Below are positions 13,157 to 35,757 of a stretch of DNA of 45,417 nt, in pieces. The position numbers and the translations under genes are program-made. Every line of letters begins with the position of its first letter. Position 1 is the stretch's first letter. The notes beneath the pieces were generated by a model, which worked only from the letters and a program-made list of their open reading frames with translations, searched no databases and had not been told where the DNA came from. Source of the DNA: a virus (taxonomy: Duplodnaviria > Heunggongvirae > Uroviricota > Caudoviricetes); the IMG/VR virus record IMGVR_UViG_2675903468_000006. One strand, 5' to 3'.

Positions 13157-13900
13157 TTAAGTAACTGTTACCGTATGCACGGCCACAAAGTTGCCGTCTT
13201 CGGTGTTGATGATGATCTGCGCGCTGCCGGTCGCCACACGGTTAACCGTGACGGTAGTACCTGATGCCGTGGCAGTGGCTTTGGTGGGATCGGTTGAAGC
13301 GACGGTGAAGCCAGTATTTGTTGCGCCGGTTGGTGCGATATTCACCGTGAAGGTGCTGGTACCGCCAGCCGCGCCAGTGCTGGTAGTCGGGGTTACCGTC
13401 ACACCAGTCACTGCTACCGCAGTGATTTCGTTCACTTCGATAGTGCTCGCGTCACCGACCTTGAACTCAGTAGAGAACGTGACGATATCGTTAGTGCCAC
13501 CGTCAGAACTCAACGCGTTAATGTTCATGTAGCCGATGAATTCAATCGGACCGTAGTCCATGCGCACCCAGATACCTGGCTGGCGCTTAGCCTTCAGCTC
13601 ATCAGCGAAATACTTGATGAACTTGCCGACACCGTACTGGTCCAGTTTGTCCTTCTTGCGCACTTCACCTTCAAAGCTCAGGGTGAAGTCACTGTTGGTG
13701 ATGATGGTCTCGACATAGCCGCCGCCGTCATCCGCATCAGAGGTAACCGAGTTAGGGTTGAAGTCGAAGCCTTTCGACGTACCAGCAGCCAGCGCCTTCC
13801 ACTCAGATTCGAGTGGTTTGACATCCGGGCAGCCATCGGCGACTTCCAGCACGACCGCACCGCCGAACAGGCGTTCGTTCGAGTTCTGGCAATTAGCCAT
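13157..13900 (-). CDS. Major tail protein with C-terminal Ig-like (Big_2-type) domain
   Basis: Thr/Val/Gly-rich beta-type C-terminus, size and position; SD agaggag. Confidence 0.7.
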   Translation of the reverse strand: MANCQNSNERLFGGAVVLEVADGCPDVKPLESEWKALAAGTSKGFDFNPNSVTSDADDGGGYVETIITNSDFTLSFEGEVRKKDKLDQYGVGKFIKYFADELKAKRQPGIWVRMDYGPIEFIGYMNINALSSDGGTNDIVTFSTEFKVGDASTIEVNEITAVAVTGVTVTPTTSTGAAGGTSTFTVNIAPTGATNTGFTVASTDPTKATATASGTTVTVNRVATGSAQIIINTEDGNFVAVHTVTVT

Positions 13901-13924: not shown

Positions 13925-13950
13925 AAAGAAAACCCGCCGAAGCGGGTTAT
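13925..13950 (-). terminator. Intrinsic terminator upstream of major tail gene
   Basis: Same ACCCGC-TTCG-GCGGGT hairpin as at 11582, followed by TTTCTTTTT. Confidence 0.55.
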
Positions 13951-13963
13951 TTGGTTGGGATGG

Positions 13964-14347
13964 CTATTCGCCGTAAGTGCAGGCGAACTGGAGTCTGAAG
14001 ACTATTCGCCCTTCTTCTGTGAGCACCGGCGCGGGAATTGCGCCCATGTTCTGGATGTAGCCGACGCACTCGTCAGCCATGGGGTTGGCCTGGACGTAAT
14101 CGACGATGCGCTGTACGGCATTGAGTGCGTCTTTGCGCTTATCTTTTGCGCCTACGACGTCGACCAGGACGTGATACTCAGAGCCGAGGTCAGTCCGAAT
14201 ATACGACCCGCCGTTAGGCCTGAACACCATGATCGCCTTCGACAGGTCTCCCGGGTCGTCGTACATCAGCTGCTGCACCGTGAAACCGGTAGTTAGCCCG
14301 GCGTCGCCGAACATGTTGCGCACCCGCTCGTGCATCATGGGTGTCAT
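13964..14347 (-). CDS. Tail completion / tail terminator-like protein
   Basis: 127 aa, position before major tail gene. Confidence 0.4.
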   Translation of the reverse strand: MTPMMHERVRNMFGDAGLTTGFTVQQLMYDDPGDLSKAIMVFRPNGGSYIRTDLGSEYHVLVDVVGAKDKRKDALNAVQRIVDYVQANPMADECVGYIQNMGAIPAPVLTEEGRIVFRLQFACTYGE

Positions 14348-15158: not shown

Positions 15159-15331
15159 CAGTCATCCCTCCATCGCAGCACAGCGGCGCCAGTCGCCCGG
15201 ATGCGCGGGCAGTTGATGAACCACTCGCCGTCCGACTTAACGTAACCGGTTGTCTCCCGCCCTGTGTCGGTCATCACCCAGACGCGGGTGAACGCGCGCG
15301 GAAGGCCGTGCTTAACTGATTTGTACGTCAT
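15158..15331 (-). CDS. Small coupled ORF (57 aa), below the track cutoff
   Basis: ATG overlaps upstream stop (TGATG) and its stop overlaps the next ATG; translates MTYKSVKHGLPRAF...LRWRDD. Confidence 0.35.
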   Translation of the reverse strand: MTYKSVKHGLPRAFTRVWVMTDTGRETTGYVKSDGEWFINCPRIRATGAAVLRWRDD

Positions 15332-15711
15332 CAGCAACCCCCGACCACCATGAACAGGCCGACGCTGTTACCGGCGCTAATCGGCAACTCGCCGGTGCAG
15401 CCGCTGGTATCGAGACGGGCCAGCGAGTCGCGCAGCCAGGTGATGCTGTCAGCATCGTAATCGAACGAGCGGGACGCGCCAGAAGGCGCACCCTGCGATT
15501 TGATGCGGCGCGCGCCGGACGAAGTAGCCATAAGCGCGGCGGCATACATCAGGATCAGCTTCGCGGTGCAGTCGTCATAACCAGCGCCATCGAGACAAGG
15601 GATAATCTTGTTCACCACGCAGAGAATCGGCTCCAGCAGCGCGCCCGGGATGGAGTAACCCAATTCACCGAGGAACGCCTGCACGTCTGCCGCTGTGATT
15701 GGGTCAGCCAT
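15331..15711 (-). CDS. Head-tail connector family protein (hypothetical)
   Basis: Position after the coiled-coil gene. Confidence 0.4.
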   Translation of the reverse strand: MADPITAADVQAFLGELGYSIPGALLEPILCVVNKIIPCLDGAGYDDCTAKLILMYAAALMATSSGARRIKSQGAPSGASRSFDYDADSITWLRDSLARLDTSGCTGELPISAGNSVGLFMVVGGC

Positions 15712-15713
15712 GG

Positions 15714-16001
15714 TTATTTCGCCTTTTTCTTCAGCTCGTCGATTTGTTTCTGAGCCTCGTCGAGGTCAGCCTGCAGCTTCGTGTTGTCAGCGGTCAGCGA
15801 CTCAACTTTGCCATTGGCCTCGTCGAGGTCAGCCTGCAGCTTTTGCACGTCGGCAGGTGTCGCAACTTCCAGGACCTGGTCGCTTACCGGGATCGCTTTT
15901 CCTGCCAGCCACAGCGGGAGAGTCTCGCCTTTGTAGACCTCACCCTTTTTCAGTTCGTGGCTGTCATGGGTGAGCAACCATTTTTGTTCTTTACCAGCCA
16001 T
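15714..16001 (-). CDS. Small coiled-coil protein with internal repeat (KLQADLDEA twice)
   Basis: Start set at MAGKEQ with SD GGAGG; 26-bp direct DNA repeat encodes the repeated heptads. Confidence 0.45.
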   Translation of the reverse strand: MAGKEQKWLLTHDSHELKKGEVYKGETLPLWLAGKAIPVSDQVLEVATPADVQKLQADLDEANGKVESLTADNTKLQADLDEAQKQIDELKKKAK

Positions 16002-16010
16002 ACGGCCTCC

Positions 16011-16037
16011 GTAAAAAAGATGGGGCCTGAGCCCCAT
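16011..16037 (-). terminator. Intrinsic terminator immediately after major capsid gene
   Basis: Minus-strand ATGGGGC-TCAG-GCCCCAT hairpin followed by a T-run. Confidence 0.6.
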
Positions 16038-16040
16038 GAA

Positions 16041-17072
16041 TTATGCTTTGGTCAGCTGGGCGTAACCGGCCTGGCCATTCGCGTCATGTTTGAACTGCGG
16101 CGCCGCAGCAGCCAACACGGAGAAGACATAATCGTCTTCCGGATTCTGGCGAGCTTTCGGGCGCATAGTCATCGGCATGCCGTTGAGGATCTGCACAACG
16201 TCAGGGCGCTTAACCACACCCAGCAGTTCGTTTTGCGGTACCTTAGAACCAGGAACCAGCGCCGCAACACCAGGGATTTCCATGATGCGGGACAGGATGG
16301 TCTTCGGATAGTTGGCCGCGTAGTCGTTCACAGACGCGTAGAACCAGTCTTTGTAGTTCACGTAGATGGTTACCGGGCCGTAGAAATTCTTGGACTGCAG
16401 CAGACCAATCAGCGCGGAGATGGCGCCGACCCACTGAGCGCCGGTTGCGCCGTTCAGGTCAAGACCATGCGTGCCGGTTGCGCGGTTTGGCGCAGTGCGC
16501 AGGCCGTAAATGGTCGCGCCTCCGACGTTGATGTTTGGATCGCCGTTCAGCACCATATCTTCCAGCTTCTCAGCCACTTTACGCTGATGGTTGGAGATGG
16601 CGTCGCTGTCCAGAGAGTAGCCTTCAGTCTGCGCTGCCAGCATCTGACGCCAGCCGAAAGTCAGCTCGCTGTCGATGATAGGCAGTGGCGTACCTTCGTA
16701 ATCCATGACAGGCTGATCGCCCTTCGCCTTGCCGCGGCCATCCAGGCTGATGTTTACATCACCGGAATCTGACAGAGTCATGAAGTAGTGAACGATCTTA
16801 CCGAGTGCCATCGGGCGGGAAACGCTGGCGGCCAGGTCGTTAAACACTGACAGCACGTCGCGCTGAACGGTAATCGCAGAGCGGTCCCATTCCCCCCAGA
16901 CATCTTTCGGCAGCACGGAGGCGTTACCGACGAGCTCATCAAATGCAATGAACTGACCGCCTGCGTCGTTGACTGCAAAGCCATGCTGTGCAGCCATATT
17001 GCGCTGCATCATATCCCAGCGACGGCGGGCATTGAGAATCAGCTTCTGCTGCTGTGGAGTAAACTTTAACAT
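16041..17072 (-). CDS. Major capsid protein
   Basis: 343 aa, position after scaffold/decoration genes, strong SD, terminator downstream. Confidence 0.65.
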
Positions 17073-17083
17073 TCTTGTTTTCC

Positions 17084-17518
17084 TTATGCCTTGGCGTACG
17101 GAGTGGAGAGGATCACCACGTCGGCGAAACCTTCCGCCGCCAGAGTGCGTCCTGCTTTTTCGTCGAACGTTGCGACGACCTGGTTGCCGGTTGCGGCCGC
17201 TTTGAATACGCCGCCGGTACCGATAGTCAGCTCCTGACCCACCGTATAGGCCGCCGCTGCCAGGCGAACGTTGTATTCCTGCTCACCTTCAACGCGGTAT
17301 GCAACTCCGGTTTCGTTAGCTGCGTATGCAGTTGTGATTGCCTGGCCGATGAAACGACGGTTGCCGAGGATGAACCAGCGGCCGGTTGTATCAGCGGAGG
17401 CTGCGAGCTTGCCTGATGCAACCTTAACTGCCACGCCTGGGTTAAGCGCCGCAGCAACCGGCAGGTTGATGGTTTCCGGCTCGCGCTCGACCGGGCCGCG
17501 ATAGATGACGTTAGCCAT
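17084..17518 (-). CDS. Small head structural / decoration-like protein
   Basis: 144 aa, Ala/Gly/Val-rich, directly upstream of capsid gene. Confidence 0.4.
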
Positions 17519-18906
17519 TATTTAGTCCCCTCTTCCATACCTGCGTTAAGGTCGTAGTCTTTCCACTGGTCGTTTTCAGAATTGACCATCTGGAATGATG
17601 GGTTCAGCGGAGTGCTGGTCTGGCACTGTGAGTACATGTCGTTCAGCGCTTCGCCGGAAAGCGAGTTGATCGCTGCTTCGGTCATGAACGAGAATTTCGC
17701 TTTAACCGCGTCACGTTTGGTTTTCAGGTCGCTCTCAGCGTTCGCCTGCAGTTGGGTTTCCAGCTTGCCCAACTTTTCATTCAGCGTGGTGAGTGCCGCA
17801 TTAACGGCCGCGGTGATCACGTCAGAGTTAATTTGAGCCTGGCCCGGGTCGCCGCCGCCATCTTTCTTCTGCATCTGCTGGTTGTAGGCATCCCAGACCT
17901 GATCGTCGGTCAGCCCCTCGGTTTTAACGCCTGCGGCATTGAGCGCGGCGATCATCTTCTCTTTCATCGGGTTTGTTTCTCCGTTGGTTTTGACTTCGTA
18001 CTCAGTTGGTTTGCGCACGACTTCTACACGATCGCCGACAAAGACAGCCTTGCCATCATCGTCAATCAGGTACTTTTGTTTGAAATATTGCTCTCCGTCG
18101 CGATAGACGAAGCTGTCAGGCCAGATGGCTTCCGGCCAGAGATAGGAGTCTTCACCCTGTCCCTCTCGTAATCTGCAGGTAATAGCCCGGTTAATGTCGT
18201 CGAATGTGTAATTCGATGCGTTTGAAAGGTAAAACTTCACCTTATTCCACAGGCCATCTTTCATGCTGTTGGCTGCATCGATGAGGCTCGTCGTTTCAAC
18301 ATCAGCCTCTTGCCCGTCAGCGTTGACGAACATGCCGACACCTTCATCCGGCGTACCGGCACCGGGTTCGTCGAGCAGGATCGCGATGTGGTCGAACTGC
18401 ATGTTGTGAGCAACCCAGGAGTATTTCTTCTGCTTCGACTCCCCGGCCTTTTGCTCTTTGTTCAGCAACAGACCGGTAGAGACATGAATCGGGTCGGCGT
18501 TATTGCCGGAAATCATGTCGTCCAGGCGCTGAATAAGGCGCTTACCGTCAGGCTTGGTGTCTGCCACTGCCTTATTTACGTAAACGTCCATCACGACTTT
18601 GTCGTTGGCCTTGCTGACGTTCTGAGCCCATGCACCGGCGTAGTAATCGTTGACCGCTTGCGGGTCGTTGGCGCTGACGTATTTGCCGTTCACCATCGGG
18701 TGGCCGATCGGCATTAACTTGCGCTCCATCGTCTGGTAGCTGTTGTTAATCTCCTCCGCCGGGTACAGGACGCCATTCATCACGATGTCATCGACGATCG
18801 GAACCGCACCACGAATGACGTAGTGTTCCTGGCCGTTGATGGTGGTCGTTGAGATGTTGGAGGCGTTGATGGCGAGGCTTTTTACATGAATGCTGGACAG
18901 CTTCAT
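17518..18906 (-). CDS. Putative scaffold / prohead protease-like head protein
   Basis: 462 aa with coiled-coil C-terminus; position between head morphogenesis and capsid genes. Confidence 0.45.
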
Positions 18907-18960
18907 GGATATTCCTCATTATGACAGATGGTTGTTATTCACTAAAAACAAGGTGTTAAA

Positions 18961-19176
18961 ATGCAATACAAGGTCTTATTCTCTGCCTTAATTAATGGCA
19001 ACAAACAAAATCTCGACGCTGTATTTACTACCACCGGCGCACCAACACTGGATGACAAAGTGACTGCCAAAGACGCTGCAAAGGCTGCTATGCAAGCGCT
19101 GTCTTCGGTCGTTGGTGTAAACACTCCAATATTCACCGTGGAATTCCGTTTAGAAGCAGTTCTTCCAGTAGTTTAA
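18961..19176 (+). CDS. Small opposite-strand ORF (71 aa) in the gap between head genes
   Basis: ATG preceded by AAGGTG; fills a 266-nt minus-strand coding gap; stop overlaps the head morphogenesis stop. Confidence 0.35.
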   Translation: MQYKVLFSALINGNKQNLDAVFTTTGAPTLDDKVTAKDAAKAAMQALSSVVGVNTPIFTVEFRLEAVLPVV

Positions 19177-33747: not shown

Positions 33748-34636
33748 CACGATCCCCCTCGCGCACTTCGATGTAGAGCTTTTCGGTCAGGAACTTATCG
33801 AATTTCATGCGGCGCCAGGTTTTCCCGGATTTCTGGTCTGGTCGGTCTTCAAGCATCCAGCGGCAGTTTTGAGCGATATATCGCAGATAGCTTCTGAAAC
33901 CGTCCATATCCATCGGCTTGCCGTCCAGGTTGCGGGCAATCTTGTTAGCCTTACCCCAGAAGGTGCGGATCAGATTGCGTCGCTCATCAGTGAGGCATCT
34001 CCATCCCCGGGCTTCAGGCAGTTCGTCTTTCAGGCATTGCCATACTTCATCGCATGACAAACGGGACTTTTTCTCTTCAGCGGGGTTCTGGTCATTTGCG
34101 ACATACTTACTACCTTTAGGTAGTAAGTTATTTAATATATTGTTATCTGTGGACACCGGCTGGACATCGGCTGGACACACATCCTCCACAGGCATTGTTA
34201 TTACTGCGTTTGCGCTGGACACTGGCTGGACATCGGCTGGACAAAAATTTGACTGATATTCGTCATATTTGACCACTTTTAGAACAGTAAAACGGTTGTT
34301 CGATTTGGTGGTGATCATGCCCAGATTCTGGAATTTACGGAGCAGTGATTTAACGCGATCAGCGGTCAAACCCGTTTCCATTGCCAGCGTGTTACGCCCG
34401 GTGATGAACTCGCCGCGCTCGCAGATCACATCGCCAACATCAGTCGATACCAGTGTCTGTTCGTGATTAGCGCGCAGGAGCAGGTGAACCCATAAATGAG
34501 CCGCCTCAGCGTCCTTGTAGAACGGCACATCCATAATTTTACGGTGCAGCAAGGCAAACCCCTTACCGTCATTCGTGCGCGGTTTCTGGAGCCTTCTGGC
34601 CTCTCTGGCTTCGGCTAAATTGGATACGTTACCCAC
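33737..34636 (-). CDS. Replication initiator (lambda O-like), contains origin iterons
   Basis: Internal protein repeat CPADVQPVS matching the DNA iterons; probable GTG start after SD AAGGAGA. Confidence 0.65.
   Translation of the reverse strand: MGNVSNLAEAREARRLQKPRTNDGKGFALLHRKIMDVPFYKDAEAAHLWVHLLLRANHEQTLVSTDVGDVICERGEFITGRNTLAMETGLTADRVKSLLRKFQNLGMITTKSNNRFTVLKVVKYDEYQSNFCPADVQPVSSANAVITMPVEDVCPADVQPVSTDNNILNNLLPKGSKYVANDQNPAEEKKSRLSCDEVWQCLKDELPEARGWRCLTDERRNLIRTFWGKANKIARNLDGKPMDMDGFRSYLRYIAQNCRWMLEDRPDQKSGKTWRRMKFDKFLTEKLYIEVREGDRDDR
34103..34243. repeat. Phage replication origin: 10-bp inverted repeat, AT-rich tract and about six CTGGACA-type iterons
   Basis: Iterons at about 10-bp periodicity in two clusters; inverted repeat CTTACTACCT/AGGTAGTAAG. 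Confidence 0.6.
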
Positions 34637-35690: not shown

Positions 35691-35757
35691 TTTAGCGTTA
35701 TGCTAAATACTACGCAAGCATCATTTAGCAATTTGCACATTTATCATTTTGCTAAAA
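35691..35757. promoter_or_regulatory. Right operator region (OR), three sites of type TTTAGC-N5-GCTAAA
   Basis: Perfect site TTTAGCgttatGCTAAA plus two degenerate copies between cro and cI starts. Confidence 0.6.

Follow-up and report, generated by a model that had tools for sequence, protein, structure and literature searches.

Streptococcal M proteins vary in size through intragenic recombination, and in-frame polymorphism of repeat number is a familiar property of such coiled-coil surface proteins. Here we describe a comparable locus in a much smaller gene, located at positions 15714..16001 (minus strand) of a 45,417-nucleotide (nt) stretch of tailed-phage DNA (Caudoviricetes; IMG/VR record IMGVR_UViG_2675903468_000006), hereafter the window, and encoding a head-module protein of 95 amino acids (aa) in which the nonapeptide KLQADLDEA occurs twice. 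As in the M proteins, direct repeats lie in heptad-coding sequence, whole units distinguish the alleles, neither frame nor coiled coil is disrupted, and the copies within one gene are homogenised. Unlike the M proteins, the product is a phage head-module protein of only 74-137 aa with one to four short units, and no immune-evasion context or surface location is known for it. Very probably, a 63-nt in-frame unit in the coiled-coil stalk of this protein changes in number, and has its copies kept alike, through misalignment of its two 26-nt repeats.

A second set of described systems comprises small auxiliary head proteins that form rods, represented by the collagen-like capsid binder gp12 of SPP1 and the head fibre gp8.5 of phi29. 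With these the protein under study shares its very small size, its place in a head module and a predicted rod-like oligomerising segment, which in Mannheimia relatives is a Gly-X-Y-like (GET)n tract instead of a coiled coil; unlike these, it yielded no sequence or fold match to them, and the corresponding (ETS)n tract of Pasteurella is not Gly-X-Y. A third is gpFI, the DNA-packaging chaperone of lambda, whose gene (Fi) takes the same slot, directly after the major capsid gene E and before the head-tail joining genes (E-Fi-Fii). Both gpFI and the small protein consist of two modules, a helical part and a small folded part with a charged joining segment; the module order is, however, reversed, as the beta domain is N-terminal in the small protein, which also has a basic C-terminal end that gpFI lacks. 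A capsid-chaperone role of gpFI is mentioned in a passage of PMC4493119 that cites Popovic et al. 2012.

The repeat and the gene that carries it

The 26-nt sequence GCCTCGTCGAGGTCAGCCTGCAGCTT is present exactly twice in the window (plus strand, 15754-15779 and 15817-15842), and in none of 100 dinucleotide-preserving shuffles of the window did it match twice, even when as many as three mismatches were permitted, so that the exact repeat is beyond chance. The copies start 63 nt apart and leave a gap of 37 nt. This period equals 21 codons, exactly three heptads, and KLQADLDEA is a nine-residue motif at heptad positions c-d-e-f-g-a-b-c-d within the 21-residue unit. The initial annotation, made from the letters alone, had correctly seen a 26-bp repeat occurring twice in a small coiled-coil gene, while its limits (15753-15839) have to be moved to 15754-15842, its spacing of about 61 bp is superseded by the period and gap given above, and the repeated "heptad" that it named is the longer motif just described. 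Tandem Repeats Finder did not report the locus, where only ~1.4 periods are present.

Read as an open reading frame (ORF) with its translation, the gene encodes 95 aa followed by a stop codon at 15714-15716, and its product begins with a beta domain at the N terminus, continues in a helix of six heptads and has a KKKAK end. Invariant alignment columns and a profile search mark out aa 1-49 (15855..16001; ...KWLLTHDSHELKKGEVYKGETLPLWLAGKAIPV...EVATP) as the conserved N-terminal domain. It is followed, in gene orientation, by the first repeat copy (15817..15842, gene nt 160-185, encoding KLQADLDEA at K54-A62), the 37-nt inter-copy segment (15780..15816, encoding the remainder of the 21-aa unit, NGKVESLTADNT), the second copy (15754..15779, gene nt 223-248, KLQADLDEA at K75-A83) and the C-terminal tail QKQIDELKKKAK (15717..15752), comprising the last heptads and a lysine-rich end whose basic character is kept family-wide, as judged from the alignment and the family sequences.

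The true start of the gene is the ATG at 16001. A Shine-Dalgarno-like GGAGG (16006..16010) stands 4 nt upstream of it, and RefSeq/PGAP call an equivalent start in two E. coli genomes; on the latter ground a 107-aa ORF from 16037 was rejected as the gene. The longer ORF is in frame with the preceding capsid gene across the capsid TAA, with a gap of 39 nt (16035-16043 region). We therefore considered whether read-through of the stop codon might fuse the two products, and rejected this, since in two relatives (L001 and L018) one extra T in the T-run makes the gap 40 nt and the frame relation is not kept; the in-frame relation is thus probably coincidental.

An AlphaFold2 model (single chain, 45-sequence alignment, mean predicted local distance difference test score (pLDDT) 83.9) places strands at residues 6-10, 22-25 and 36-38 and a single helix at 49-94 with pLDDT 88-96, confidence being lowest at residues 41-50. 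The heptad register runs unbroken from V52, with V52, L59, V66, N73, L80, I87 and A94 at the a positions and L55, A62, L69, L76, A83 and L90 at the d positions. By its unbroken heptads, its hydrophobic a and d positions and its predicted helix, the tail has the predicted properties of an alpha-helical coiled coil, and the stalk is presumably oligomeric. Compared with seven relatives, the N-terminal domain has a ratio of non-synonymous to synonymous differences (pN/pS) of 0.04-0.29 at pS 0.5-0.84, which indicates that the gene is under purifying selection.

The small protein matches the family phrog_22246 over its full length (E 5.3e-60, 1-95 of 95 profile positions), with a second match, of residues 7-53, to phrog_13988 (E 1.2e-22); both families are without functional annotation, and repeat-length polymorphism is not part of their description. 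Pfam and NCBIfam searches gave nothing but sub-threshold coiled-coil matches. The identical protein is encoded on 398 contigs. A 90%-identity cluster containing it has 845 members, among them 126-aa DUF7370 proteins, and its representative has 126 aa; this looks like a clustering artefact, and cluster-level counts need to be read with care.

Copy number among relatives

Homologues of 74, 95, 116 and 137 aa contain one, two, three and four copies of the motif, respectively. Among 5,426 complete E. coli genomes the gene was found in nine, at 97-98% identity, and eight of the nine have two copies; E. coli M37H (NZ_CP092233) has exactly 63 extra nt, resulting in a protein of 116 aa with three KLQADLDEA. 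Searching 5.8 billion protein clusters recovered the length classes 74, 95 and 116-117 aa, with tails past EVATP of 25 residues (22 clusters), 46 residues (63) and 67 residues (5), and with rarer tails of 39 and 53 residues that are also heptad multiples apart. The DNA of representatives showed that one-copy genes are precise one-period deletions and three-copy genes precise duplications: as seen in the M37H alignment and the allele gene sequences, the segment 15780..15816 is missing from one-copy alleles and duplicated in three- and four-copy alleles. An independent scan of IMG/VR added 80 further loci, two of which encode 137-aa proteins with four motif copies and contain a 138-nt exact repeat of period 63.

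These alleles occur on closely related backgrounds. Over the upstream capsid-gene flank (1075 nt), the window (two copies), CUPF06 (two), an E. cloacae contig (one) and M37H (three) are 96-97% identical, and in a Klebsiella lineage one, two, three and four copies are all found, with one- and three-copy alleles 97% identical over the capsid-gene flank. When proteins were grouped by their N-terminal domain and final 12 residues, with no more than one amino-acid difference tolerated, five clusters held mixed copy numbers. Furthermore, one-copy forms share lineage-specific tail and motif variants with their nearest two-copy relatives, which, together with the mixed clusters, argues that changes in copy number are recurrent. 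Two is by far the commonest number. The suggestion of the initial annotation that an internal duplication could permit length variation is therefore borne out by proteins of 74, 95, 116 and 137 aa separated by exact 63-nt steps on 96-97% identical flanks, and the comparison of related prophages that it had proposed gave one to four copies and not an invariant number.

In six metagenome-derived homologues (P0102, P0105, P0106, P0108, P0109 and P0111), a frameshift is found just past EVATP, a few residues from the first repeat (...CKSCRLTSTR...). Either errors of sequencing at a CAAAAG run or genuine frameshift alleles may account for this.

A proposed model of whole-unit exchange

We propose that the two 26-nt copies act as the identical ends of a 63-nt unit in the stalk of the small prophage head-module protein, and that misalignment between them would add or remove entire 63-nt units, with replication slippage and unequal homologous recombination as two possible routes that sequence cannot tell apart. 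Misalignment as the molecular driver is what we infer from the alleles. The outcome would be a series of one to four motif copies with tails of 25, 46, 67 or 88 residues past EVATP. As 63 nt can be divided both by 3 nt and by the 21 nt that encode one heptad, frame and heptad register are kept in all alleles, and the gains and losses seen are indeed all of exactly 63 nt, so that both are retained. The rise of a canonical coiled coil is ~0.148 nm per residue. Only the length of the stalk would therefore change, by ~3.1 nm per unit if the coiled coil is canonical, and the same exchanges would keep the copies of one gene identical while lineages drift apart. In its build the protein starts with the conserved N-terminal domain and finishes with a lysine-rich end, and the spacer that joins them is variable in length.

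Judging from the alleles, the variation is one of length and not on/off phase variation. An on/off phase-variable contingency locus was considered and rejected, as the repeat units found in the family (63, 9 and 105 nt) are without exception divisible by 3 and no allele leaves the reading frame. Instead, the locus belongs with in-frame repeat-length-polymorphic coding sequences, having an in-frame unit, whole-unit differences and concerted evolution. This kind of polymorphism is well known, and the present case is ordinary variation that leaves the current understanding of it unchanged. What it offers is a set of natural alleles with 3, 6, 9 and 12 heptads, in a head-module protein that is widespread among enterobacterial prophages and uncharacterised, and a compact case of concerted evolution inside one phage gene.

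Spacer variation across the family

With a profile of the N-terminal domain, the commonest form of homologue is one of 54-56 aa, consisting of the domain and a ~10-residue lysine-rich tail with no spacer; phages K1M and KpV2811, for instance, encode a short form of 55 aa without a coiled coil. In Mannheimia phages and prophages (L088-L095, L004:4001-4225), the position of the coiled coil is taken by 9-nt units in perfect tandem array, (GGCGAAACT)n with n = 2, 5, 6, 9, 10 or 11, encoding (GET)n. This tract of the one protein family resembles a microsatellite and is far more variable. Pasteurella multocida (P0158-P0164) has (ETS)1-3, that is GETS, GETSETS or GETSETSETS before the basic end, in proteins of 74, 77 and 80 aa. 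A collagen-like reading of the Mannheimia tract was considered and is weakened, the related (ETS)n tract not being Gly-X-Y. Pantoea-like and other lineages have unrelated coiled coils, some with exact repeats of their own, such as a 29-nt repeat of 105-nt period (L080). On this comparison, in-frame changes of length have a general hot spot in the stretch that precedes the basic C-terminal end.

Distant homologues (P0183-P0185) terminate in EVATPRRGRPPKE, with an AT-hook-like RGRP, and a few tails read RRGRPPKE, which hints that the basic tail is a putative DNA binder. In two IMG/VR proteins of 110 aa (L096 and L097) the coiled coil is inserted before LEVATP and not after it, so that EVATP and the basic tail may together form a C-terminal module of their own.

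These observations bear on why the alleles persist. Length variation could be adaptive, a contingency-type switch that tunes the reach of a displayed or tethering stalk, which would leave the mechanism as proposed and change only the reason for which alleles are maintained. Unrelated repeat systems at the same position (63-nt units, the 105-nt period of L080, 2-11 units of 9 nt in Mannheimia, 1-3 ETS in Pasteurella), all with units that are multiples of 3 nt, are what such selection would be expected to leave. Yet no phenotype, rate or association with host or capsule type accompanies them, and weak constraint would account just as well for the 0-88 spacer residues that are tolerated; we regard an adaptive switch as unlikely, if worth keeping in mind. 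A bolder form of the idea, which we consider quite doubtful, is that the protein is a device of anchor, spacer and basic tip with an evolvable spacer, for which different lineages independently recruited 21-aa, 35-aa-period and GET/ETS units; spacer length would then tune the reach of a capsid or neck fibre, or of a tether from capsid to DNA or terminase, to the host or to packaging geometry, and the gene would be a length-contingency locus in a phage head module.

Concerted evolution of the copies

The identity of the two copies could, in principle, be that of a static old duplication, held by selection on KLQADLDEA alone (for example if the peptide makes equivalent contacts at two sites), in which case the copies would no longer exchange sequence and length would not truly vary. 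The peptide is in fact strongly conserved, occurring twice in 27 of 67 two-copy proteins, and the predominance of two copies would agree with such stasis. The remaining 40 tell otherwise: 22 of them depart from KLQADLDEA in the same way in both copies. At the DNA level, the mean number of differences over 27 nt is 1.4 between the motif copies of one gene and 5.7 between same-position copies of different genes. In diverged lineages the outer copies are mutually identical over 24-29 nt, yet differ from the window motif at 6-10 of 27 positions, synonymous sites included; this holds for Pectobacterium (L007), Buttiauxella (L008), Phytobacter (L009) and Salmonella (L022), with further homogenised examples among the IMG/VR loci (L043, L044, L057, L072 and L080). 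The Pectobacterium gene, for instance, carries AAGCTCCAGGCTGATTTGGATGCGGC twice, and both of its copies use CTC/GAT/TTG/GAT where both copies in the window use CTG/GAC/CTC/GAC. Identical departures that extend to lineage-specific synonymous codons go beyond what peptide selection explains and argue against it as the sole cause. Across lineages, the 36 nt between the motifs have diverged, although they are orthologous, and hence the duplication is old and the motif copies have been homogenised since. As one-, three- and four-copy alleles also occur on near-identical backgrounds, we hold a static duplication to be very improbable.

That identity reaches synonymous positions might also point to an element acting in DNA or RNA, a protein-binding site or the CCTCG-N-CGAGG palindrome, that lies by chance in coding sequence, and each copy does contain the near-palindrome CCTCGTCGAGG. 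Its nucleotides are, however, not kept between lineages: L007, L008 and L009 are without the palindrome and still have two identical copies. Moreover, one-copy alleles are common, and direct repeats are unable to pair with each other in RNA. Such an element is accordingly a very poor candidate for the cause of the identity, and repeated exchange between the copies remains our preferred reading.

We also hold it very improbable that the copy-number differences are artefacts of repeat collapse or expansion in short-read assemblies. Many homologues do derive from such assemblies (metagenomic or Logan), in which the 75-138-nt exact repeats of three- and four-copy alleles could be put together wrongly. 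The three-copy allele, however, is present in complete chromosomes, those of E. coli M37H (NZ_CP092233) and K. pneumoniae (CP154079), and the index of the collection lists the 116-aa protein in 141 blocks. One-copy alleles were met repeatedly, in several lineages and with flanking substitutions particular to each. A repeat of 26 nt falls below the k-mer length that assemblers usually work with, and two copies would thus not be expected to merge into one. Collapse would, moreover, under-count copies, not make new ones.

Possible roles of the small protein

Database comparisons gave few leads. A nucleotide search of 50,697 phage records with the gene found no match, and a protein search matched only the N-terminal domain, in Mannheimia phages, Citrobacter phage K1M and Klebsiella phage KpV2811. 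The profile search of PDB sequences returned only generic coiled-coil matches, the best being the P22 tail needle gp26 (E 0.001); Foldseek against the PDB gave none below E 0.1, with an L9 ribosomal N-domain plus helix and SH3 domains on top, and BFVD gave one unnamed 55-aa homologue and otherwise only unannotated proteins. In the literature on DUF6260, DUF7370, KpV2811, K1M and 587AP2, no functional or proteomic data on the small protein were found. Two specific candidates were rejected: a phage scaffolding protein (PF06810 at 21.3 bits against a cut-off of 35; phrog_194 at E 6e-4, over the coiled-coil part only), and homology to lambda gpFI (hhalign probability 0.5%, no Pfam FI match).

Immediately upstream of the gene, a terminator-like hairpin found by a terminator scan (16013..16037; ATGGGGC-TCAG-GCCCCAT, then CTTTTTT) lies between the capsid stop (16041) and the ribosome-binding site of the small gene. 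It is the sole structure in the centroid RNA fold. Its stem is kept with differing sequences in L007, L009, L014, L020 and phage K1M, and it is absent from L008, L012 and the Mannheimia locus L004. The hairpin may be an attenuator lowering the expression of genes downstream of the capsid gene. It suggests that the small gene is expressed below the level of the capsid protein, and makes a stoichiometric shell component less likely.

We infer an accessory head-assembly or virion protein, with the spacer as a tether or stalk of weakly constrained length; tolerance of 0-88 spacer residues would speak for a tether or projecting stalk over a tightly packed structural element. Two more specific roles appear about equally likely, each of them only tentatively: by analogy with gpFI, a tether from capsid to DNA or terminase, or a displayed head or neck fibre. 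In K1M and KpV2811 an extra 85-aa gene stands between the capsid gene and the small-gene homologue (L003:3743-4000 and L005:3743-4000), annotated as "head fiber protein" in the former and "virion structural protein" in the latter, and this adjacency recalls the rod-forming head proteins. The alleles themselves could serve to distinguish such roles: if the protein is in the virion, phages with one and four copies should differ in a density by ~9 nm, which would locate the protein, and if it is a packaging tether, the alleles would test the effect of linker length on packaging.

Gene neighbourhood and other features of the window

The assignment to a head module made in the initial annotation is supported by the neighbours. 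In order of transcription, these are a DUF2213 protein (17518-18906, 462 aa; its homologue in phage K1M is annotated as "prohead core protein protease"), a head decoration protein (phrog_766), the major capsid protein (16041..17072; PF19774 DUF6260, E 1e-65; phrog_771, E 5e-108; annotated so in relatives), the small gene, a DUF7370 protein (15331..15711; PF24085, E 9e-42; phrog_786), whose ATG lies 2 nt past the stop of the small gene, connector-like genes and a tail terminator.

Several related prophages (L002:6255-6288, L014-L016:1-81, L018-L019) carry, a short way upstream of the DUF2213 head gene, an oppositely oriented gene of the Rap1a/Tai family (type VI secretion immunity), which looks like a moron inserted into the head module; at the equivalent place the window has only ~270 nt (18907-19172). 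A second terminator-like hairpin, AACCCGC-NNNN-GCGGGTT (13931-13948, scored on both strands), is situated between the tail-terminator gene (13964-14347) and an Ig-like major tail gene (13157-13900). Finally, short tandem repeats occur at 34150-34243 and 35722-35752, one type having an 11-nt unit, TGGACACCGGC, and forming two arrays close to each other, the other having a 16-nt unit, CATTTAGCAATTTGCA; these may be iterons or operators of the early region.
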